A DNA stretch of 64,000 bases, from positions 9,144 to 73,143 of the IMG/VR virus record IMGVR_UViG_3300020577_004796, one strand, 5' to 3'. Shown piece by piece: positions 2,186 to 64,000 of this stretch. Position 1 is the stretch's first letter. Every line of letters starts with the position of its first letter. The notes under the pieces were generated by a model. That model ran no database searches. It had not been told where the DNA came from and saw only the letters and a list, made by a program, of their open reading frames with translations. Made by a program: the position numbers and the translations under genes. This stretch comes from a virus. Lineage: Duplodnaviria; Caudoviricetes.

Positions 2186-4927
2186 TTATTTTTTTGCAGC
2201 TGGTTTAGGTTTCTGTGCATTTTTCTTTCGTAAAGCCATAAGCTCTTGCCTTGTACGATTCTCTTCAGCTCGCACCTTATCTGCTTGCACTTTAAGATTA
2301 TCTTGCTTTAATTTAGTATCATCAGCATGTTTTTGTCTGTCAAAATTCATTTGTTCTGTCCACTGTTGCTGACTTTGCATTTGCTCCATAGCATCTTGGA
2401 AAGCTCCTTCTGATGCTGCAGCGTCATCTGTTGACGCAGCTCTACCTGCTGACATTATTTCAGCTATAAGAATTTTAGCTTGACGATCTTTTTCATTTTG
2501 AATGTCTTCGTGAGACCATTCTTTTTCAGCTAAATCTTGCTGCAAAGCAAGTTGCTCTTCATGTTGGCGTTTTTCCTGTTCTATTTCTGCTTGCCTTTCT
2601 TTTTGTTCTCTTTCTTCTATTTGTTTAAGATTGTCATTAAGATCTGCTAAGTTATTTATTTGTAGGAGCTTACCCAGGTCAAAGATGGTGGCGCCAGTTG
2701 TATTATTATTTAATAATAACTGTTTGATATTAGATAATATTTGACGTGCGTTTACTTTAACTACAGGATAAACATTAATATCACGTAGAAGAAGCTGTGT
2801 GCCATCTATATTAAATACTACTTTTTCATTATTTGTAGTAATATATTGAAGCTGAACTGAAGGATTTCTTGATTGATAATATTGAGCTAATTCAGTTCTC
2901 ATCTGATGAACTCTTGGCATCAAATAATCACAATGCTCTATAAAATGCATTTCAGTTTGATCATAAGATTTTCTTATAGATTCCTCATATTCTTTTGCAC
3001 TGGTTTCTTGACCAACAGCTTGTGCCATTCTCTGAGCGTTCATGCCTATTATTTTATAACACTGCTGCTCGTAAAAATTAGATATATTAATTCTGGACAT
3101 TAACCTATCTGTCTGGCTAAGATCCATATGAGTAAAATTATTAAAGTGACCCCCTTGCATATTCTGCAAAGAAGTATCTAAAGGCAGCATCTGAAAATTC
3201 TTCATTGCTAAAAATGCCTTTTGATAGCTATTGGGCCCCCAATCTTCTCCTAAGGAATGTTTTGGAAGGGTGTTACCATCTAATAGAACAACCGTTCCTA
3301 ATTCATCTATAAGAATATCTGCTATTTGGTTACAAACCATATTATAACCAATTTGTGAGGGTAACATTTTAGCTACCATTGGTACAGATACGGTATTTCT
3401 ATCACCGAATACACAACCTTCTACTGGCAATTTAACTCCATAAAGATTGTCATCTCCTTTAAATTGAAACGGAAGCCTACCTGGCTTATTTGTAGTTATA
3501 CCAATATACATTGGTTGAATACCACCAGGGTTATTCATACCCCACCAAGCAGGTCTATTAGGGCCTATTTTAATACCACCCCATACATCATTAATCCAAA
3601 TCCAATCTATATGTTCTCCATAGATAAGATTATATTTAGACTCTTCTTTATATAAAGTTGTATCATATTTTGGTTTACAGGTAACTACATAGTTTTCATC
3701 AACTATGTCCATTTCTGGAATACCCTGTTCATTTATCTTTGTTAAGTGACCTACTTTTCTTTGGCTTTTCCAGTAGATGGTGGTTACTCGGAGTAAATAG
3801 GATTGCCCAAAATCTTGAAGATCCTCTGAACCCATTAAAATTTCCTGCACAACGTCTCCATTTCTGTTTGTAACGTCATATTCAGAAACAAATTGGCGAT
3901 ATTGTAAAGACGGCATTTGTGTATTCCAATCATGAGAATGAGTAGAATCATAATAAGATCCATCATTTTGCATGTTTCCTAAGAGATAACCAGCTGCTCT
4001 AATTGGATAAATTGCTTCTATATTTTTAATTTGGTCAGCAGTCATCAACCACCCATATTTATCTACAACATCAGCAGCAGTCATAAGATCGATCATGCCA
4101 ACATAATTAGCTTGAGAGATCCAACGTCTATCTGGTGATTTATGATAAAAGACTTGAGGAGGATTCCAAAGTTCTACTTCATAATCATTTTCTTTCATTT
4201 TCTGATGCCAGAACTCAGAATCTGTAATAAGTTTGTCAGTAAACCCACGCTCTTCCAATTCGTCCATATGAAAGCGTTGGTCATCAACTTGCTTTTGATG
4301 CTCTGCCCACTCTACATAAATATTACGATAACCAGTTCTGTAGAACTGTTCCAGGTTAGGGAGTTGTTTTAGTGCATCTGGTTGTAATTGAGCCTGTGCT
4401 TCTGGAGTATTCATATCAACTCCCATTTTAGAGAGTTTCAGTTGAACCTTCATCTCAGCCTGGGCAAGAAGAATTGATTCTAGCTTTTCAGACTTATCTT
4501 GTTCCATTTCAGAAGTAGATATTGGATCTACTGCCTGAAACATTAATTTTGCTTGTCTTTTAGAAAATTCAGTACGAAATGAATCTATTATTGTTGGAAT
4601 TAACGGATAAAATTTTAATTCCAGCATTTCTTGAGTATTTTCAGTAAGAGTCTCTAGCATTTGACTCATATCTGAATTTTCCTCTTTTATATAATCAGAT
4701 CTTTCTATTATTCCCCTAGCAGCTTTATAGAACTTAAGTAACTTTGGGGCACGACGTTTCATTTGTTTTATGCCCTGCCATTCCAAAAAGTCCATATTCC
4801 AACCCACCCACTGTTCATCCTTCTCTTCAAAAGGTATCATCTGGAGTGGCTGTGTTAAACTGCCAAGTATATTGTTTTTAGTTTTAGCCCCCTTAAGAAG
4901 CGACATTGCGTTTAAAATTTTACTCAT
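2186..4927 (-). CDS. Portal protein
   Basis: 913 aa, downstream of TerL; features of crAss-like portals (KLKFYPLIP, WNPPQVFYHKSPD, LKLPVEG-like segment, C-terminal coiled coil). Confidence 0.85.
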   Translation of the reverse strand: MSKILNAMSLLKGAKTKNNILGSLTQPLQMIPFEEKDEQWVGWNMDFLEWQGIKQMKRRAPKLLKFYKAARGIIERSDYIKEENSDMSQMLETLTENTQEMLELKFYPLIPTIIDSFRTEFSKRQAKLMFQAVDPISTSEMEQDKSEKLESILLAQAEMKVQLKLSKMGVDMNTPEAQAQLQPDALKQLPNLEQFYRTGYRNIYVEWAEHQKQVDDQRFHMDELEERGFTDKLITDSEFWHQKMKENDYEVELWNPPQVFYHKSPDRRWISQANYVGMIDLMTAADVVDKYGWLMTADQIKNIEAIYPIRAAGYLLGNMQNDGSYYDSTHSHDWNTQMPSLQYRQFVSEYDVTNRNGDVVQEILMGSEDLQDFGQSYLLRVTTIYWKSQRKVGHLTKINEQGIPEMDIVDENYVVTCKPKYDTTLYKEESKYNLIYGEHIDWIWINDVWGGIKIGPNRPAWWGMNNPGGIQPMYIGITTNKPGRLPFQFKGDDNLYGVKLPVEGCVFGDRNTVSVPMVAKMLPSQIGYNMVCNQIADILIDELGTVVLLDGNTLPKHSLGEDWGPNSYQKAFLAMKNFQMLPLDTSLQNMQGGHFNNFTHMDLSQTDRLMSRINISNFYEQQCYKIIGMNAQRMAQAVGQETSAKEYEESIRKSYDQTEMHFIEHCDYLMPRVHQMRTELAQYYQSRNPSVQLQYITTNNEKVVFNIDGTQLLLRDINVYPVVKVNARQILSNIKQLLLNNNTTGATIFDLGKLLQINNLADLNDNLKQIEEREQKERQAEIEQEKRQHEEQLALQQDLAEKEWSHEDIQNEKDRQAKILIAEIMSAGRAASTDDAAASEGAFQDAMEQMQSQQQWTEQMNFDRQKHADDTKLKQDNLKVQADKVRAEENRTRQELMALRKKNAQKPKPAAKK

Positions 4928-5597
4928 TTGTTAGCTTTTTAAAATCACTCATATAAACAATATTTGTTTTATTTCTACTTTGTCCAGCTAACATAGCATT
5001 AAGAGTAGTTCTTTTCATATTTAAATACAAAGCTGCTTCTTTTATATTTTTAAATATTTTATTTGTTTTTGTATCTATAACTTGTTTTGAAACAACATTT
5101 TTTAATTTTTGCATTCCTTCTTCTGAAAACTGTCTTTTTTGTCCAGTTATCGCTTTTTTCATTTTTTCTATTCTTTCTTTAGAATGCTTTTTTCCTAACT
5201 GTACATTTCTATTAATTTCCTTATGCCATTCTGGCAATGGTTTCCCAAAATTTGGATTATTTTCTCCAGACAAAGAAAGGGATCGTTTTAATCTCGTATA
5301 TGTAGATTGAACAACTCCTAAAACTCCCTCTCCACCATCTGTTAAATTACATAAAGTTCCGGTTCCTGTATTTATTCTACCAATTCTTTCTATTAATTCT
5401 ACTTCTATTTTACACGCTTCTTCCCATGTTAAATTGTCATATATTATATTAATAATATAATCTGGATTTCTTTTTACAATAGCTTGCCATAATTTATTTC
5501 TCCCCTTTGTAGTATAAGCTCTTTTTATAGTTTTTCCTATACCAACGTAAAAAATTTCATTTTTATCTGGTCTTATATGTTGATATACTATAGCCAT
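4920..5597 (-). CDS. Free-standing GIY-YIG-like homing endonuclease (NUMOD3/NUMOD1-like C-terminus)
   Basis: IVYQHIRPDKNEIFYVGIG, LCNLTDGGEG, SGENNPNFGK; inserted between terL and portal. Confidence 0.8.
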   Translation of the reverse strand: MAIVYQHIRPDKNEIFYVGIGKTIKRAYTTKGRNKLWQAIVKRNPDYIINIIYDNLTWEEACKIEVELIERIGRINTGTGTLCNLTDGGEGVLGVVQSTYTRLKRSLSLSGENNPNFGKPLPEWHKEINRNVQLGKKHSKERIEKMKKAITGQKRQFSEEGMQKLKNVVSKQVIDTKTNKIFKNIKEAALYLNMKRTTLNAMLAGQSRNKTNIVYMSDFKKLTNE

Positions 5598-5599
5598 CG

Positions 5600-7804
5600 T
5601 TATCTGTAATGTTTAAATGGCGAACCCTTTGAATAAGGATTAGCCTTTTTAGGACCTGTCGGACCAGTCCCATACAAGAAGTTACGAAAATTATCTGAAC
5701 TTTCCAAATTTTTCTCTTCTTTTTCTACTTTTCTGTGAAATCCCAGGTTAGCCTGTTGAATTTTAGCAAAAGTAACCAACGCACAATAAGCTACAATTCG
5801 GTCATAGTTTCCCTTACCGTCTTCATAAGCCATCATTTCTCTAAGCAGCATTATATCAGGAATTCGTTCTATACCATATGTATTTTTAACAACAATTTGG
5901 GTATCTTGCTTATAGACCGTATCTAAAACTTCCTTAAGATATTCAATTCCGTAGCCTAATAGGTGATTCCAAACAGGAACTGAATTCTTCCAACCATACT
6001 CTTGATAAGTTTCAGATTGACCCTTCATATCTTTATTAAATACCAAGAGCTGAGATCTTGGCACCAACATATGTTGTTTTTTCTGATTTATCATATGTGT
6101 TATAAAGTTTGACTTATTTGCTTCCACAATAGTCCAAGCGTTATAAAGATCTATTAACATCTCAGCTCTATCATGAGTTTTATTAATATCATCAAATCTA
6201 CCGCACCACCAAGCTACTATCTTATCACCTTCTAATCTATTTTCTATTTTCTTATCTAATCCAATTTTAGTTACTTCTGTAGTTGCTTTATAGATATATA
6301 TAGAAAATAATGAATCTGAAGTACTAGTTTTACCACTGTCAACGGGATCGACGCTAGCATAATAAGTTCCCCAATCAATTCTTCCTTCTGGTGGACGTTC
6401 GTGTATACAAACAACCCCCTCTTTATTTTCCATTCCCCTTTTTATTGGGAAATCTATTATTGGTAGATCGTTAGTTCTTTTGATTTCTACTTTCCCCTTA
6501 TCATCTCTTTCTAACTTTACATGCTCAATTGGATATTCTTTATCTTCAATTCTTTTAATTTGTTTGCTGACCAGGTGCATGGGGAACACTGATTCATTTC
6601 TATAAGCAAAAGCTTCATGTATGTTAATTGGTTTCTGAGAAATTCTAAGTTGATAAAGCGATGCACTCAGTTCCTTTTTCCATACAAGGCGTTCTTCTGC
6701 GATAGCTTTTAATGATTCTTCTACTAAAGAATTACCATACTTATCTATATATGGAGGCATTGACCATTGTTCTGGTATAAATAATCCAGATTTTCCTAGG
6801 GTTCCTTTCTCGTCCAGAAGGTTGGTGTCCACTGGGTATATACCGTGTGCTTCCGGATAAAGCATCATTTGCTTCAAAGGCTGACACTTAGCAAGATCAC
6901 CTACGGAACCAGCAGCTATAAATAATCCAGTAGTTATCATACCACTGGATAAGGCTGGTCTAATAAATTCATAAGTTGTGTCCATTTTTGGAGCTATACC
7001 AGCTTCTTCATGATAAAATATAGTGGTTGAACCACCTACACCAGACGTAGGATCATTTTCAAAAGAGTAACCAGTTATTGTGGAGTCATTACCAATATAA
7101 ATCTCTTTACCATCAACTGTACCCTTAGCTCGTTGTTGCCATGTCAAAGTTTTATCAGGATCGCATCCTCTATACCAACCAGTGTTTCTGTTTAGAACCT
7201 TTCTGTATTCATTAAGAAATTTCCAGTCACCTTTTTCATTGATATAGTCTTTAAGAGAAGCGCCTATTTTTAAAGTAGCTCCCTCTTCAAACCAGAATTG
7301 ATTTATAATCTTAGCCAGGTGAAAGTAGGAGGAACCAATTTGTCGTTTCTTTAACAACGCCACGTGTGTGTAGTGTAGCTCTGCTAAGTGTTCATATAAT
7401 GCTATATGATAGTGGGTGTCCCATATTTCTGGAAAAAAGAAACCCTTCTTGGCTTTATCGTATATTTTAAGAAAGTTAATCCAAAAATAATAATCCCTGG
7501 TTAAGTACCAAGTTTTACCATTATTGTTGAATATTACTCCTTTTCTACATTTATCTTTTTCTTGTTTACCCCAATAATGAAGATAGTCCCTAGAATTGAG
7601 TGGGTCTTTAGTATAAAGTCCATCTATGGCAAATCTTCTAGCCTGTTCATTGAATTTTTCAATAGTTTCGTCAAATGCATATTGGCCGGGCTCCTTGAAT
7701 AGCGATTTAACGAATTCCTTGTACTCTTCTCTGTCATTAAATACAGTAGTAGTCCATTGGCCTTCAGTCCAAGTTGGTATCTCTATATAGGGCTCTAAAT
7801 TCAT
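5600..7804 (-). CDS. terL: Terminase large subunit
   Basis: 734 aa; Walker A-like LKKRQIGSSY, Walker B FYHEEAG, RNase H-like nuclease ASVDPVD, IVEAN and NYDRIVA motifs. Confidence 0.93.
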   Translation of the reverse strand: MNLEPYIEIPTWTEGQWTTTVFNDREEYKEFVKSLFKEPGQYAFDETIEKFNEQARRFAIDGLYTKDPLNSRDYLHYWGKQEKDKCRKGVIFNNNGKTWYLTRDYYFWINFLKIYDKAKKGFFFPEIWDTHYHIALYEHLAELHYTHVALLKKRQIGSSYFHLAKIINQFWFEEGATLKIGASLKDYINEKGDWKFLNEYRKVLNRNTGWYRGCDPDKTLTWQQRAKGTVDGKEIYIGNDSTITGYSFENDPTSGVGGSTTIFYHEEAGIAPKMDTTYEFIRPALSSGMITTGLFIAAGSVGDLAKCQPLKQMMLYPEAHGIYPVDTNLLDEKGTLGKSGLFIPEQWSMPPYIDKYGNSLVEESLKAIAEERLVWKKELSASLYQLRISQKPINIHEAFAYRNESVFPMHLVSKQIKRIEDKEYPIEHVKLERDDKGKVEIKRTNDLPIIDFPIKRGMENKEGVVCIHERPPEGRIDWGTYYASVDPVDSGKTSTSDSLFSIYIYKATTEVTKIGLDKKIENRLEGDKIVAWWCGRFDDINKTHDRAEMLIDLYNAWTIVEANKSNFITHMINQKKQHMLVPRSQLLVFNKDMKGQSETYQEYGWKNSVPVWNHLLGYGIEYLKEVLDTVYKQDTQIVVKNTYGIERIPDIMLLREMMAYEDGKGNYDRIVAYCALVTFAKIQQANLGFHRKVEKEEKNLESSDNFRNFLYGTGPTGPKKANPYSKGSPFKHYR

Positions 7805-21201: not shown

Positions 21202-21233
21202 CAAAGGTACGACAATATATTGATATTTCCAAA
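21202..21233 (-). promoter_or_regulatory. Bacteroidota housekeeping-sigma promoter
   Basis: Minus strand reads TTTG-N20-TACCTTTG. Confidence 0.8.
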
Positions 21234-21605: not shown

Positions 21606-21637
21606 CAAAGGTACGAAACCTTTATGATTTTACCAAA
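21606..21637 (-). promoter_or_regulatory. Bacteroidota housekeeping-sigma promoter
   Basis: Minus strand reads TTTG-N20-TACCTTTG. Confidence 0.75.
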
Positions 21638-22429: not shown

Positions 22430-22884
22430 ATTATTATTTTTTCACACCTTTGCCGCCCCTACCTGTTAAAAGATAACTAATAGCATAGGTACAAACAATA
22501 AAGACAATTAAATCTGGTATGTATCTCATATAACAAAGATACAACAAATAATCCATTTAACCAAATAAAGTTTCGTAATAAAACTAATTTTTTGTTATTT
22601 GTTACGTAAAAATATTTTTTATAAAATTTTTCTAGGAAAAAATTGACTGGATTAGTGAGGCTTAAAACTTTATATAATATTTTTTGTACAGAAATTCGAG
22701 TGTTAGAACTAACCCTAGTAGACATCCCTCTGTTTGTTTCGGGGGCAAGTACCCCCCGTACAAGTATCTCGTGTTGCGTTTCACGTAACACCTCATCTTG
22801 TTTCGTCTTCATGTTTTGTATTTCTCTTATTATACAACAGGTGCGTGACTACCTGTCTAAAACAAAGTGTCGCTCTCGTGCGTT

Positions 22885-24634: not shown

Positions 24635-24666
24635 TTTGGAATTGTTAATAATAAGTTGTACCTTTG
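24635..24666 (+). promoter_or_regulatory. Bacteroidota promoter driving the GIY-YIG gene
   Basis: TTTG-N20-TACCTTTG, 4 nt before ATG 24671. Confidence 0.8.
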
Positions 24667-24670
24667 TGGT

Positions 24671-25213
24671 ATGATTTACATATATACAATTACAAGTCCT
24701 ACGGGAAGGGTTTATGTGGGACAGACCATTAATCCTACAAAGAGAAAACACCTCTATAAGTCATTACATTGTAAGACACAATATCTCATTTATAATTCCA
24801 TATTGAAATATGGCTGGGATGCACATGTGTTTACTGTTATAGCAGAATTACCTATCGAATATGGAGATGATGCAGAAATAGCATATATTTCCTATTATAG
24901 GGCCTATCATACTGATGGTGGACTTAATCTTACTACAGGAGGATTACGCCCTAAAATGACTGTAGAAACAAAACAGAAACTATCTGCTGCTATTATGGGA
25001 GCAAAGAATGCCAGAGCTAAGAAACTATATCAATATACATTAGATAAACAACTCATTAAAATATGGGATTGTATGAAATGTATTGAGAGAGAACTTGGTT
25101 ATGGTACATCTTGGTTATCTATAGCAGCTAAAAATAATAAACAAGCTTACGGCTATCTATGGTCATATGAACCTCTGCAAGGGCTAGATGAATGGGTAAT
25201 CTGTTCATGGTAA
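24671..25213 (+). CDS. GIY-YIG homing endonuclease with NUMOD1-like C-terminus
   Basis: MIYIYTITSPTGRVYVGQT, LNLTTGG, AYGYLWSY. Confidence 0.9.
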   Translation: MIYIYTITSPTGRVYVGQTINPTKRKHLYKSLHCKTQYLIYNSILKYGWDAHVFTVIAELPIEYGDDAEIAYISYYRAYHTDGGLNLTTGGLRPKMTVETKQKLSAAIMGAKNARAKKLYQYTLDKQLIKIWDCMKCIERELGYGTSWLSIAAKNNKQAYGYLWSYEPLQGLDEWVICSW

Positions 25214-26955: not shown

Positions 26956-27250
26956 AAAAGCTCATTAAACTAATGCATTCTCTTACTTGTAAAGTATGTG
27001 GATGGCATATAAGACATTGTAAATGTCATTAATTTAATTCTTCAGATAGAATACAATGAAAATGTTGCGTTATATGATGCAAATTATTAAATACTTGCAT
27101 TATTCTATCTAAAGAATTAAATGCATACCAAACCTCAGAGGAGTTATATCCCTCACTGATTAGACAATAACTTAACACGGTAACAATTCTGTAATGTTTA
27201 AACTGATTCAAAAGGATTAAAATGTTTCAGTACATGGTTTTACAGGACGA

Positions 27251-27355
27251 GGAGGATGTTGGCTTGAAAGCAGCAATCATTTAAAGAGTGGGATGGCAAA
27301 TATGTTTTTTCTATTTTTATAGAGATAAATACCCTTTGGCGTAACAGCACACTCC
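27251..27355 (+). ncRNA. 23S rRNA H43/H44 (uL11-binding domain) mimic, copy 1
   Basis: GGAG-GATGTTGGCTTGAAAGCAGCAATCATTTAAAGAGT-[insert]-GCGTAACAGCAC-A-CTCC aligns base for base with 23S nt ~1052-1107. Confidence 0.8.
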
Positions 27356-27605
27356 AAGTTAAGTTTAATCAGTCTTTCTCCCAAAGAGTGAGGTGTTGTA
27401 ATGAGATAGGCAGGTCCCCAAAGACGGATAATAATGTAAATTAAAGAAACCGTGTTTACTACTAGCTAAGTGATTAGAAACGTAGACTAGCAATAGGTCA
27501 GCGGTAAAGAGCATGTATCTCTATTACAACAAGGTATATTGGGTGCTGATAGGAAAGACTATCCCTCTTCGGAGGTTATTCAATTCACTCATTAAAACAA
27601 TACTA

Positions 27606-27944
27606 ATGAAAAAGACATACATATTCAGATATGATACAAAGGATGGTAAATTCTTAGGCTATCATTATGATAGTTTCTGTACTACAGGTAACAGTGTTAT
27701 AGAAGCTAAAAGATATCCAATGACTACAGAAGTACTTCCAGAACAAATGAAGACCATTCGGGAGAATCTGGAATCATTATGTAAGAGATATACTAATAAC
27801 ATGTTCCATGGGCATCCTGTAGCTGATGTCATACTCTCTGAAGAAGAACTGACAGAGTCCGTAGAACAACAGTACCCACATACCATGAAATGGGCCAGAA
27901 TAGAACTGGTAGATGGAGAAATACAAACTGTATCAACTCCTTAA
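27606..27944 (+). CDS. Hypothetical early protein
   Basis: Likely start MKKTYIF after a TTCACTCATT leader. Confidence 0.6.
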   Translation: MKKTYIFRYDTKDGKFLGYHYDSFCTTGNSVIEAKRYPMTTEVLPEQMKTIRENLESLCKRYTNNMFHGHPVADVILSEEELTESVEQQYPHTMKWARIELVDGEIQTVSTP

Positions 27945-27971: not shown

Positions 27972-28295
27972 ATGAACGCTAAACAAGAATTCCTAGGACA
28001 TATAGGAACCCGTATAGTAAAATGTGCTATAATACGAATAGGAGATATATATATGGATGAAGATGTAATAACTAACCTATTACCTGTAGGAGCATCTAGT
28101 ACACAGTCAGAAACATTTCTGCAGAGTATAGATAGAAATTACAATAATGGGTATGGTACTCAAGAACTATTTGGTACTATATGGTATACTGATGGTACCT
28201 GGTCTAGCAGAGGTGAATATGATGGCAGTGAATGGTGGGAACATCATAAATGCCCGGATATACCAAAAGAACTACAACAGAAGCAATATCTATAG
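27972..28295 (+). CDS. Conserved-looking phage hypothetical protein
   Basis: YNNGYGTQELFGTIWYTDGTWSSRGEYDGSEWW motif of a common small phage family. Confidence 0.65.
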   Translation: MNAKQEFLGHIGTRIVKCAIIRIGDIYMDEDVITNLLPVGASSTQSETFLQSIDRNYNNGYGTQELFGTIWYTDGTWSSRGEYDGSEWWEHHKCPDIPKELQQKQYL

Positions 28296-28503
28296 GTGGT
28301 GTGGTAGAGAATGTTGGCTTGAAAGTAGCCATCATCTAAGGAGTAGGTGAGAACCCTAAGCACAGTGGCAATCTCTGGTAATGGGAGATATGAAGTGGGC
28401 ATGGGATAAATTCAAAAGTTGGGTGGATTAAACGCCACTACCTGGTAGTCATTATACCAGCCTTTTGGTGTAACAACACACTCTGTCACATCATCTATAG
28501 ATA
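28287..28503 (+). ncRNA. 23S rRNA H43/H44 mimic, copy 2, on a 22-bp closing stem
   Basis: AGAG-AATGTTGGCTTGAAAGTAGCCATCATCTAAGGAGT-[insert]-GTGTAACAACAC-A-CTCT; closing stem 28288-28309/28481-28502 is fully paired with 4 G-U. Confidence 0.85.
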
Positions 28504-28527
28504 CTTATAGTAAAACAACAATATCCC

Positions 28528-28660
28528 CCTCTGTAGGGGTAGTGGTAGAAAATGATATATAGCAGTTAAGTCAAAGATCCGGAAAATGGCCCATGGAGGT
28601 ACTAGACACACCTGGTCATCTGCAGTATGGATATATCAGCTACCATTACCTCTACAGAGG
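28528..28660 (+). ncRNA. Long-stem structured RNA element B
   Basis: 21-bp stem CCTCTGTAGGGGTAGTGGTAG/CTACCATTACCTCTACAGAGG (2 G-U) enclosing further stems. Confidence 0.6.
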
Positions 28661-28731
28661 ATTAAGTTAACAACAGTACAGATATTAATACCTTTGTATA
28701 ACAATCACTCACAAATAAAACAACTAACAAA

Positions 28732-28823
28732 TACCTGTAGAGTATGGTGTAGAACTTAGAAAGAACTAATAAGTGTGGGTAAAATGCTGTGGCTAATAAC
28801 CATATACATCATCTCTACAGGTA
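28732..28823 (+). ncRNA. Long-stem structured RNA element C
   Basis: ACCTGTAGAG(T)ATGGTGTA/TACATCAT-CTCTACAGGT stem. Confidence 0.55.
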
Positions 28824-28838
28824 ATATAAAACATTAAA

Positions 28839-29042
28839 ATGGGAAAGAATACTGCAAGGAATAATCCAGGTAAAGTTAATGGTGATATTGGTCAGGGAGT
28901 AAAACGTAAGGACAACCCAGAACTATGGCATAAACTACACGGACATGCTGTAAACTATAAAGGTAAAAGACACAATAATGCATTAGGCTCACTATACGGG
29001 AAACCTGATAGAGAAGAATATTATAAATACGAATCTGAATAA
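28839..29042 (+). CDS. Hypothetical small basic protein
   Basis: 67-aa ORF. Confidence 0.4.
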   Translation: MGKNTARNNPGKVNGDIGQGVKRKDNPELWHKLHGHAVNYKGKRHNNALGSLYGKPDREEYYKYESE

Positions 29043-29361
29043 ACACTCTGAAGTAAGCCTTGTTGTAATAGGTATAAGTATTAGGGTCTCTGATGTAATA
29101 TTCAGGCTTGTCTAACCTTTTAACAACTATTACAACAGGCTTATGGAAGAGTATTAAACAATGACTATTTAAAAAATAACTTATGAGATATAGATTTGAT
29201 ACTTGTTATAATAAACAAAAAACCAGCACATGGCTGCATTTTTATATCTTACCTTCTATAGGATTTGAAATGCAAAAACCTAAATTAGCAGCGAGATATT
29301 GGGAATTTCATTTTGGCTGGTTATTTTGGAATCTTATTATATCGTTTTAAACAATATTAAT

Positions 29362-32293: not shown

Positions 32294-35200
32294 ATGTCAC
32301 TCATTCTAAAATTACTTTTAAGCATTTGTATATTAATACTTCCGTGCTGCTTTAAATTACCTGTACAACAAATAGTAAATTTAGAACTATGTTCTTTATT
32401 TATTAATATTTGTTTGTTTATAGTAGTTCCTACAAAAAGGAAACCTAAATCACGTATGTATATTCATTATTTATATTTTACTGACGGAGATATAATACGT
32501 ATAGAAAGTAAAGATTCGCGTCCAATAACAGCTTATCTTTCAAGTTCTAAATACTTTCCACATAAAGAAGTTTACGATACATATACTTTATAATCTTTAA
32601 AATTAATTTTATGTGGTTATACACGCACGGGGAAGATGGTTTTGAAATAGGACCATTTGATGCTTTTACTAGAGCTGCTGCTATAAAAGCTGTACATTTA
32701 GCGATAAAGGAAGAGTTTGAGCCTGAATCAAAATCGTACGTTAAAATGCTTATCCAGGAGTTTAGGGAGAATCCTACATATCTACGGAAACTAAGTAAAG
32801 AACAACAAGAAAATATCAAACGAAACTATAATTTTTTGAGAGGTATGTAAATGATGCTTATATGCAGACAGGATGAGTTAGACGTCTAGCTAATGTCAAC
32901 AATATTTTCCGCTTTAAAGGTATAACCGTAATTATGGCACCTCTCATTTTTATTCACTCACAAACTCACTGTTATGTATACTTCAAAAGTTAATTATTTA
33001 AAAACACTACCCATAGGGGATTTCATTATCTTTTGTTTATTATGTTTTCTTTCTTACATATGTGTAATACTATATTTAATCTTGTTTCATGAAGATATTT
33101 TTGGCAAGCTATTTGTAAATATAAAAAACTGGCTCAAAAAACCAATTTGGTAACTTAAACTTATTCATATGTTTGTACTCGAAGGATCTCCGTTGCTTCT
33201 TAATCTAATTATTTACAATACTTATAAAATTAGATTTGGATCAAAAATTAATTATGAGCTTTATTATGAGCTTATGAATCAAATAATAACTTAACCAGGT
33301 ATGTGAGTGGATGCTATCAACCTAGGCCGTTTAAAGGGTACAGAGACAACTAGCAAATAAATAATCGACCACCACATACCTGGATAAGAACTCAAAACAT
33401 TTAACTCACTCAAAAAATCATTTTGATATGTACAACAATTATTTAATATACATAATGGGGTTCATAGTTGCTTTTCTAATAACAAGGTCTATTGCAAAAG
33501 TAATAGTGAAAGACATGGAAGGATCTGCTGCAAATCCAGGATGGGGGGCACTAACAGCTAGAGTTCTCCTTTCTTTTGGTAGTTGGATTACTGTTTTTAG
33601 TAGTTTGATAATGATAATAGTTTATTTAATTTATAAATTTATCGAAAATAAAAAAATAGGTGATCCACCTAGCTGGCTATAACTAATTTTTAACCATTTC
33701 AAATTATTTCATATGATACGCTCAATATCAATAATCGCACTTACGTTGGTAATAATAATATTTATCATAGGAGTTGGTGCGTTTATAAGTTCAAGACCAG
33801 ATCCCCCAAGAAAGCCAAATATTGTCACTAACAAATACTTTACTTCACGTAACAATTATCCATTAATTTGCCAATACGAAGCAACAAATATTTATGGTTA
33901 CACTGAAGATTCGTGTGATAAGTACGATGTAGGTGACACATTAAAAACTTTTAAATAAAAAACATGCCTAAAACAAAAAATTGGTTACAAGAACACATCG
34001 GAAAGAATATTCAGATAATTAAATCTGATGAATCAGATATTATTACTGTCTTAGACGAAGAACACGTAGAGATCTTGTTTAACCAACAAGATACTTATGT
34101 ATATGAGGAGATCGGTCCCATCAATGTAACAATCGTAGAAGATGCTTCAGAAATAATACAAGAAGAATCTTTTGCGGATCAATGGTTAGACAATCAAGCT
34201 AATAAGTATTAATGCACCTTATACGTTATTGGTTCAAAAAAACTGAATTTGAACGAATGATAAACGATTGCCATCGCTATGATTTGTTTCACAGACGCAG
34301 AATTTATACATTTTGGGGTAAAAGAAAAACATATTAAAGTATAGTAGGGGGTCCAGGAACATGTAAGAGTGTACAATGTATGCCTTTGTATCGTAAACCC
34401 TCTACTACATATTTTATCACTCACTCAAATCAAACATATGATACTCATAGCAATAATAGAAATGCCTGAAGAACACCAAAATCTTTCAAGAACTGTTATG
34501 GTATTTGGTGAAATCGAGTTACAAGCGCAAGAAGAAACAGTGGATGCTGAAGTAGAAGTAATCTCTTCGTGTCCATTACAATAAACTTTATCAAAATCTA
34601 TATGGGTTGTGAGGAATCCCATTTTATATAAAAACTCTCTCTAACGAAAAAACCAAGATATACGTTAGATTGTTTGCAGCACTTGGGCGCCTCTTGCGTG
34701 AGATCTTTAACGTGAAGAGAAGATGCGTTGCGCGAAAAGCTATATGCATTATGCGATTCGTTTATAGAAGAGCTGGTCCAGAAAGATGGTTTGGGTTAAC
34801 CCCCGAATCCTGGACCAGTTTTTTATTACTTACTCATTAAATATTATTTATTAACCATAAAAAACAACTCAAATGAAACACTTGCTGTCACGCACACATT
34901 TGCCCAGAATTAAAGCTTTCACTTTCACACATAAAGGAAGTGACCCAGAAGTATTGGATATTGTTGTTTATGCAAGTAATGCACAAGCTGCAGCTCATAA
35001 ACTAAAAGTTCCTGCCGGAAGAAAAAAAGAAGATTACAAATTAAAGCCCGATGAAACTGTCAAAGAAGAAAAAGAGAAAACTGTTCAAACTCTTAGTTAA
35101 TCAACTCATTTTTAACAAATATTAAATTGATTTTATGAAATTAAATGTAAATTCTTGGTATGGTAGGCTTTATTTGTCTACTTATGGTAAAGACAACACA

Positions 35201-47128: not shown

Positions 47129-47160
47129 TTTGGTAGATTGACAGATTTTTAGTATCTTTG
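47129..47160 (+). promoter_or_regulatory. Bacteroidota promoter
   Basis: TTTG-N20-TATCTTTG. Confidence 0.8.
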
Positions 47161-62958: not shown

Positions 62959-63549
62959 ATGACAGAAATAAATAATAATTTACTAGTACAAAGAACAGAA
63001 CAAAAAAAAGAAAGAAAAATATATTGTATTCGTGGAGCACGTGGCTACGCTGGATGGATGAATGGAACGATTGTTCCTACCATTGAAGAAGCCGACTTAA
63101 TTGTTGCTCCGGGTGGATCGGATATAGATCCTCGCTTATACGGCAGAACACAACATCACCAATTTGCATGGGGGTCTACTCGCATGGAAAATGATGGAGA
63201 GTTGGAAGATCTGAAAAAAGCCATTAGGCTGGGTAAGAAAATATGGGGGACTTGTAAAGGTATTCAATATGGTTCTGCTTTATCCGGTGGTCTTTTAGTT
63301 GCAGATGTTTCACATCCGTATAAACATCCTATAAAAACAGAAGACGGAAAAACGCTTATAGTAAATTCAATGCATCATCAGCTCTGTTATCCTTTTAATC
63401 TTCCAAAAGATGAATATCGTATCATAGGTTGGTCAGAAGGGATTTCAAATCACTATGACGATGTAGACGGGACACAAATGGAAGTTCCAGTAGAGCCGGA
63501 AATATTATATTTTCCTAAAACAAACTATTTAGGAACACAATTCCACCCT
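62959..63549 (+). CDS. Second class I glutamine amidotransferase / C26, exon 1
   Basis: PGGSDIDP, GTCKGIQ, NSMHHQ, ends GTQFHP at an intron junction; exon 2 lies beyond the window. Confidence 0.85.
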
Positions 63550-64000
63550 TAACTTGGGGGTGATAAAATCGAATGAATTGCTGGAACGCTAAAGAGAAAT
63601 CTAAGCCAATCAGCAGCCAAGCTATTTAGGAATAAATAGAAGGTTCAACGACTAATAGTATACCACCAGAACGGTGATGAAACTAACACGAGCGTTCGAT
63701 ATATATACGTTCAATTAAATATTGTTTCTCAATTAATTCACCATTATTAGCGTGAATTTGTAAAGTACTTTTGCAAAAATCAATAGCAATTTGTACCTCT
63801 TTTAGTGTTTTATACACATTTATAGTATTATTTATTACATCTGTAACTTTTATAACAAATTTTTTAGAAATAACAGGTTTTACTAACTCTGGGTATTTAT
63901 ATTTCCAAATATAACCACCTGCGGTTTTTTGATTAGGAATTTTTCTACACGTTTTATATATTCCTACTCTACATATTCCTGTTTGTCTAGCAGCTTCTGC
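63550..64000 (+). mobile_element. Group I intron in GATase 2 (5' part)
   Basis: P1 CACCCU/GGGGTG; P AATTGCTGGAA, Q AATCAGCAG, R GTTCAACGACTA; S and 3' end outside the window. Confidence 0.85.
63683..64000 (-). CDS. C-terminus of a NUMOD1-type homing-endonuclease-like ORF, antisense to the intron
   Basis: Hand translation AEAARQTGICRVGIYKTCR...KTAGGYIWKY...YKTLKEVQ...ERSC-stop. Confidence 0.7.
   Translation of the reverse strand, partial: AEAARQTGICRVGIYKTCRKIPNQKTAGGYIWKYKYPELVKPVISKKFVIKVTDVINNTINVYKTLKEVQIAIDFCKSTLQIHANNGELIEKQYLIERIYIERSC

Follow-up and report, generated by a model that had tools for sequence, protein, structure and literature searches.

The window, i.e., the whole 64-kb stretch of DNA that was analysed, comprises bases 9144-73143 of a 73-kb IMG/VR virus record with a completeness of ~61%. 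Between two small genes, gene B and gene C, the window displays three hairpins, E1, E2, and E3 (Table 1), and the flanking genes of this array all lie on the + strand. The nearest tRNA genes are located at 21.6-21.9 kb and 41.8 kb and the tmRNA at 31.8 kb, so that the array does not lie among tRNA genes. Five sites in the window carry the strong promoter form TTTGG-N19-20-GTAYCTTTG, which we take to be the Bacteroidota promoter type (-33 TTTG, -7 TAnnTTTG) and which points to Bacteroidota as the host phylum; one of them (24635-24666) is placed upstream of the array region. Directly behind this promoter lies an ORF with weak likeness to GIY-YIG/NUMOD3 homing endonucleases (24656-25213, + strand). 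Elsewhere, a group I intron is found near the window end (63540-63765, + strand; Rfam, 58 bits), and one ORF of the early region (19000-48000) matches the GNAT families Acetyltransf_3 and Acetyltransf_1 (E 9e-5), the former being the type to which the acetyltransferases of ribosomal proteins, RimJ and RimL, belong.

The small early genes of this region share the motif TCACTCA, followed by an A-rich run; in six or more of these genes, at 26.3-33.5 kb, TCACTCA stands 20-26 nt 5' of the ATG. The window contains 12 copies of TCACTCA, of which 10 are + strand copies at 26.3-34.4 kb, and TCACTCA is read as a leader or start-site motif. The spacer between E2 and E3 comprises (i) a -7 box-like TACCTTTG at 28689-28696, in the extended form seen in the strong TTTG-N-TAnnTTTG promoters of the window but lacking their -33 TTTG, and (ii) the leader motif TCACTCA..AAAACA at 28705-28722; in the case of gene C, E3 intervenes between this motif and the ATG. 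E3 is probably placed behind its own weak promoter. Given the TAG stop codon in the E1 stem base and the gene C leader motif at 28705, E1 and E2 would belong to the gene B trailer and E3 to the gene C leader, and the map of ORFs and promoters is compatible with the stems lying between functional units of one longer transcript.

Table 1. Coordinates of the hairpins, flanking genes, and transcription signals in the window
Feature	Position	Strand	Description
Promoter-form sites	21202-21233, 21606-21637, 22534-22565	-	TTTGG-N19-20-GTAYCTTTG
Promoter-form sites	24635-24666, 47129-47160	+	TTTGG-N19-20-GTAYCTTTG
TCACTCA leader motif	26337, 27585, 27946, 28705, 29760, 32954, 33406	+	Small early genes
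H0	27032-27122		22-bp hairpin upstream of E0; lone mismatch C-A on the + strand, G-U on the - strand
E0	27246-27355	+	Shorter paralog of the E1 core; 4-bp closing helix, small insert
X	27394-27532	+	Downstream of E0; 15-16-bp stem, one bulge, 105-nt interior
Gene B	27972-28295	+	Small gene; stop TAG 28293-28295 inside the E1 stem base
E1	28287-28503	+	23-bp closing stem around a look-alike of 23S H42-H44
E2	28528-28660	+	21-bp stem, 28528-48 / 28640-60, 2 G-U
E2-E3 spacer	28689-28722	+	-7-like box, then leader motif
E3	28732-28823	+	11 + 8-bp stem, bulged U at 28743, 1 G-U
Gene C	28839-29042	+	Small gene; ATG 28839, stop at 29042
E4	29053-29144	+	18-bp stem, one bulge, directly after gene C

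Architecture of the hairpins

The E1 stem comprises 23 unbroken pairs (28287-28309 / 28481-28503), four of them G-U. The 21-bp stem of E2 is followed inwards by an AAAA/G internal loop and an 8-bp A-U helix (28553-60 / 28631-38), within which lies the innermost interior of 70 nt, and the bulged stem of E3 encloses an interior of 53 nt. A 17-codon frame on the + strand (28784-28837) opens in the E3 loop, crosses the 3' arm, and ends one base ahead of the gene C ATG. The three adjacent, G-U-containing long stems described in the earlier note are thus present at the coordinates it gives, on the + strand and 19-23 bp long. The 551-nt stretch folds with -167 kcal/mol, z = -6.1 on the + strand versus z = -1.9 on the - strand, a difference due to the seven non-Watson-Crick pairs in the three stems, all of which are G-U on the + strand. 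With respect to the ~20 bp or more of double-stranded RNA expected of RNase III processing stems, E1 (23 bp) and E2 (21 bp, plus the 8-bp helix) are long enough, and E3 (19 bp with a bulge) is borderline.

No T-run was found 3' of E1, E2, or E3 when the sequence was inspected, and the three closing stems are missing from the output of a terminator scan, whose four hits in the region comprise three - strand hairpins and one small hairpin in the E1 interior (28442-28460). The stems are also exceptional in length. At a span of up to 320 nt, no unbroken stem on either strand of the 64-kb window is longer than those of E1 and E2, and a 20-kb segment contains three stems of at least 20 bp versus 0-1 in twelve shuffles. 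Across the complete genomes of three related phages (365 kb, both strands; TerL 55-57% identical), one single stem of at least 20 bp was detected, in a 49-nt hairpin, so long stems with large interiors are not a habit of the phage group.

Other long-stem hairpins, including H0, X, and E4, occur near the array. X covers the first ATG of ORF 27513-27944 as listed; the true start of this ORF is probably the ATG at 27606 because a leader motif is located at 27585; with this start, the segment 26956-27605 would become a second gene-free RNA block containing H0, E0, and X. The 3' arms of X (27514-27532) and E4 (29127-29137) have the 11-mer CTATTACAACA in common, and the 5' arms UUGUUGUAAUAG; X and E4 may form a second small stem family, a likeness that is not significant alone (E 1.5). 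Further downstream, a hairpin at 33249-33470 (+ strand) displays a 20-bp outer stem with six G-U pairs (z -5.4) and an inner 11+4-bp hairpin (33295-33383). The outer stem spans the TCACTCA at 33406 and the ATG of the ORF 33428-33679, its 3' arm corresponding to the first codons, and may serve translational control.

The rRNA-like interior of E1 and its relatives

The interior of E1 matches positions 1053-1080 of E. coli 23S rRNA (89%, E 2e-4), in agreement with the earlier proposal that the first loop mimics rRNA. The rRNA-like core is divided into two segments, at about 28307-28346 and 28464-28483, by an insert of ~115 nt. E0, located upstream of gene B, matches 23S positions 1056-1087 (91%, E 5e-7), and both E1 and E0 contain the H43 segment (23S 1057-1081). 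An exact-word scan with the shared 19-mer gathered relatives from large phage contigs and metagenomes. The aligned relatives all comprise (i) the H43 segment, (ii) an insert of 37-302 nt at one point, (iii) a GYGUAAYARC H44 loop, and (iv) a closing helix of 4-23 bp. E1 contains the H44 loop and the closing helix, which corresponds to the top of H42; in the family alignment it reads GUGUAACAAC followed by CAC-UC, paired with GAG before AAUG. At the positions equivalent to C1072, C1092, and G1099, E1 displays U, U, and A, a concerted change that swaps the triple for U1072/U1092-A1099, and the long stem runs coaxially on from the H42-top analogue. On these alignments, the E1 interior is assigned to a phage RNA family that copies the H42-H44 GTPase-associated centre of 23S rRNA. 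This family of look-alikes is absent from Rfam 15, and full-text literature searches for a described phage look-alike of the GTPase centre returned nothing relevant.

The phage-type UUGAAAG loop is common to E1, E0, and the relatives in large phage contigs. Most relatives, L010, L154, and L156 among them, adjoin tRNA genes, a location that E1 does not have. The L154 look-alike (5368-5679, + strand), on a metagenome contig, begins 2 nt after a tRNA-Tyr gene and has a closing stem of 22 bp with one G-U pair, whose sequence is unrelated to that of E1, i.e., an independent long stem. An 8.3-kb contig binned with 'Candidatus Limenecus' (L165) carries two look-alikes 1.2 kb apart, at 4005 and 5213 (+ strand), one with the phage-type UUGAAAG loop and the other with an rRNA-type UUAGAAG loop. 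In another relative (L009, - strand, oriented 816-850), the 302-nt insert includes a hairpin with GGUACGAGAGGAAGG, a sequence that resembles the 23S rRNA sarcin-ricin loop.

Paralogy of the stems and divergence of their interiors

The 5' arms of E1 and E2 agree at 19 of 24 positions, the best non-self match of the E1 24-mer in the window, where all others reach at most 16. Random 24-mers align as well in 0.04% of cases for E1/E2, 1% for E2/E3, and 2.5% for E1/E3, so that the related 5' arms reported earlier are borne out, more weakly for E2/E3. Read in register from the common CURUAG base, 18 pairs of E1 and E2 comprise 11 identical, 3 one-sided, and 4 compensatory changes; the 16 pairs of E2 and E3, with the bulged U of E3 removed, comprise 11 identical, 1 one-sided, and 4 compensatory. 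Neither comparison contains a broken pair. The compensatory changes and the lack of any broken pair argue for selection on pairing, a pattern predicted neither by transposase-bound terminal repeats nor by neutral decay. Accordingly read, the three stems are paralogs whose pairing has been kept by selection after duplication, the paralogy of E3 being modestly significant at 1% of random 24-mers. The similarity between E1 and E2 continues through GARAAUG, the opening bases of the E1 rRNA-like core, which hints that E2 descended from an E1-like element.

Beyond the stems, the interiors of E1, E2, and E3 bear no mutual likeness, as the earlier note had it. The 91-nt interior of E2 folds alone no better than shuffled sequence (z -0.3). 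Compared by BLAST with E. coli 16S, 23S, and 5S rRNA, E2, E3, and the spacers display 7-12-mers at chance level, the best match of the E2 and E3 interiors being a 10-mer (E 0.46), and in Rfam no element matched at the gathering score, with chance-level matches only at E up to 10. Relatives of the E2 and E3 interiors were found neither by BLAST in ~950 kb of related and family loci nor in three related genomes; exact scans with a 22-mer of the E2 interior in metagenome and genome collections, and with a 25-mer of the E3 interior in viral contigs, gave 0 hits. Within the window, sense and antisense matches to the interiors are limited to AT-rich 13-14-mers. Two candidate motifs were rejected: GGUACUAGAC of E2 as a sarcin-ricin loop, since a GAGA-type loop would lack its closing pair, and UCCGGAA as an SRP-like element, being a 7-mer only. 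The interiors of E2 and E3 are best seen as spacers or lineage-specific regulators.

The search for the array in other genomes started from its neighbours. Genes B and C led to 18 + 2 loci, none with the hairpins, and such stems were not found downstream of the gene B homologs elsewhere. In one of these loci (L032), gene C is 87% identical, the upstream region consists of ordinary small genes with no hairpin, and the similarity to the window starts exactly at the 3' end of E3. The 464-aa neighbour protein used as a query returned no loci and TerL returned 80 related loci; five whole related records gave no DNA match to E1-E3, the rRNA-like core included. Pattern scans of the collections with the E1/E2 5' arm consensus gave 0 hits, and those with the stem base, top, and 3' arm gave two hits, both attributable to chance and lacking extended pairing. 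The stem family seems confined to this genome, with the reservation that near-identical records may be masked in the searches. Since the stems have no relatives in other records, their conservation rests on three paralogs of one genome.

Possible roles of the stems and comparison with known systems

The feature that is both common to E1, E2, and E3 and selected is the stem, not the interior, and the elements are therefore read as processing or stabilising modules. This reading, to which we assign slightly less than an even chance, regards the stems as selected double-stranded modules in early transcripts, of RNase III-processing or end-protecting type. E1-E3 would be hairpin modules of early + strand phage transcripts, in which the common 19-23-bp closing helix, about two turns of double-stranded RNA, would serve both as processing and as end-protecting module. 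The host RNase III, or the pairing of the ends alone, would define and stabilise the enclosed RNA and detach it from the mRNAs on either side. The E1 stem would release or protect the rRNA look-alike, and the copies in E2 and E3 would serve the flanking messages or act as lineage-specific regulators. A Pfam scan of the 41 early-region ORFs revealed none that would encode RNase III, an RNA ligase, a reverse transcriptase, or an enzyme of RNA repair, and with no RNase III gene among them the enzyme has to be assumed to come from the host. Against processing, three stems within 540 nt exceed the needs of simple mRNA punctuation.

An unlikely alternative treats the stems as purely structural closing helices not cut by RNase III, with E1 imitating full-length H42 and with E2 and E3 as decayed duplicates. 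The coaxial arrangement of the E1 stem with the H42-top analogue fits this proposal, as does its length, 23 bp being near that of H42 (~25 nt per strand, read from the E. coli sequence). The closing helix of the family varies from 4 to 23 bp, reaching 22 bp in L154, and the E1/E2 similarity through GARAATG suggests the descent of E2 from an E1-like element. The stems, however, bear no sequence likeness to E. coli H42, and decay would not preserve all pairs through four compensatory changes each.

The earlier note envisaged a modular carrier platform, each stem presenting a distinct functional small RNA, so that the E2 and E3 interiors would be new decoys or regulators; this we regard as quite unlikely. 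Homologous stems do surround interiors unrelated to each other, one of which clearly looks functional: E1 is the sole element with a demonstrable payload, and for E1 the idea of stems loaded with cargo stands. The same idea finds no support in E2 and E3, whose interiors have no rRNA likeness, Rfam match, or relatives in any search, that of E2 folding like shuffled sequence. The wider platform finds no echo in the records searched, in none of which the stems occur and among which the 87% identical gene C relative lacks the hairpin. Unconserved and weakly folded interiors in E2 and E3 are in keeping with processing or stabilising stems rather than with a proven carrier system. A bolder version, in which the duplicated RNase III-cut stem would be a reusable cassette for decoy RNAs and the E2 and E3 payloads would be new functional RNAs acting, as would the E1 look-alike, on host translation or defence factors, is very doubtful.

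It is also improbable that the hairpins regulate the flanking genes, by termination or attenuation downstream of gene B and by acting on translation or stability from the gene C leader. E1 begins in the gene B stop codon, E3 with its 17-codon frame lies between the leader motif and the gene C ATG, and at 33249-33470 a comparable stem of 20 bp surrounds both the leader motif and the start codon of a different gene; nevertheless, the stems lack a T-run after them, their interiors (50-170 nt) do not resemble those of terminators, and the E1 interior belongs to an independent RNA family that elsewhere occurs among tRNA genes. DNA-level elements, such as miniature inverted-repeat mobile elements, cruciforms, or recombination sites, are highly improbable: the layout is that of terminal inverted repeats flanking variable interiors, and the L032 gene C homolog lacks E3, its similarity starting at the E3 3' end, but there are no target-site duplications, only three local copies exist, with none elsewhere in the genome or the collections, and the mismatches are all G-U on one strand, in arms that co-vary and keep no consensus.

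Should the stems prove to be modules for processing or end protection, E1 would illustrate how a free-standing copy of the GTPase-associated centre is released and stabilised without neighbouring tRNA genes, and stem mutations or an rnc host would give a handle on the role of a widespread but undescribed RNA family. The three paralogs further provide within-genome covariation for a structure without relatives elsewhere; otherwise, the array is a local feature of one uncultured phage.

Processing stalks for RNase III are well established, as the helices formed by the sequences flanking 16S and 23S rRNA in their operons and as the R sites of T7 early RNA, and the pairing of both ends is also a form of end protection in stable RNAs. 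The E1-E3 stems resemble such stalks in their length of about two helical turns, their G-U pairs, and the absence of a T-run, and they would likewise arise from sequences on both sides of an RNA within a polycistronic transcript. RNase III cleavage determinants have been described as proximal and distal box pairs (PMC1540722). Compared to T7 R1.1, which combines a short helix with an internal loop, the E1-E3 stems are near-perfect and show no sequence likeness, and they differ from RNase III stalks in general in that they form a tandem of three paralogs, two of which enclose sequence without visible function. Intrinsic terminators are G+C-rich, with a short loop and a T-run, features that E1-E3 do not combine, and miniature inverted-repeat elements differ by their dispersed copies, target duplications, and consensus-keeping repeats.

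Among the look-alikes of the GTPase-associated centre (E. coli 1051-1108), E1 and E0 display the H43/H44 sequences, the closing helix, and the same insert point, whereas their location is not among tRNA genes, and the E1 stem has two paralogs without the rRNA-like core. The E1 closing helix (23 bp) is one of the two longest seen in the family. In the same manner as the stalks of rRNA operons enclose rRNA, the E1 stem encloses an rRNA-like domain.
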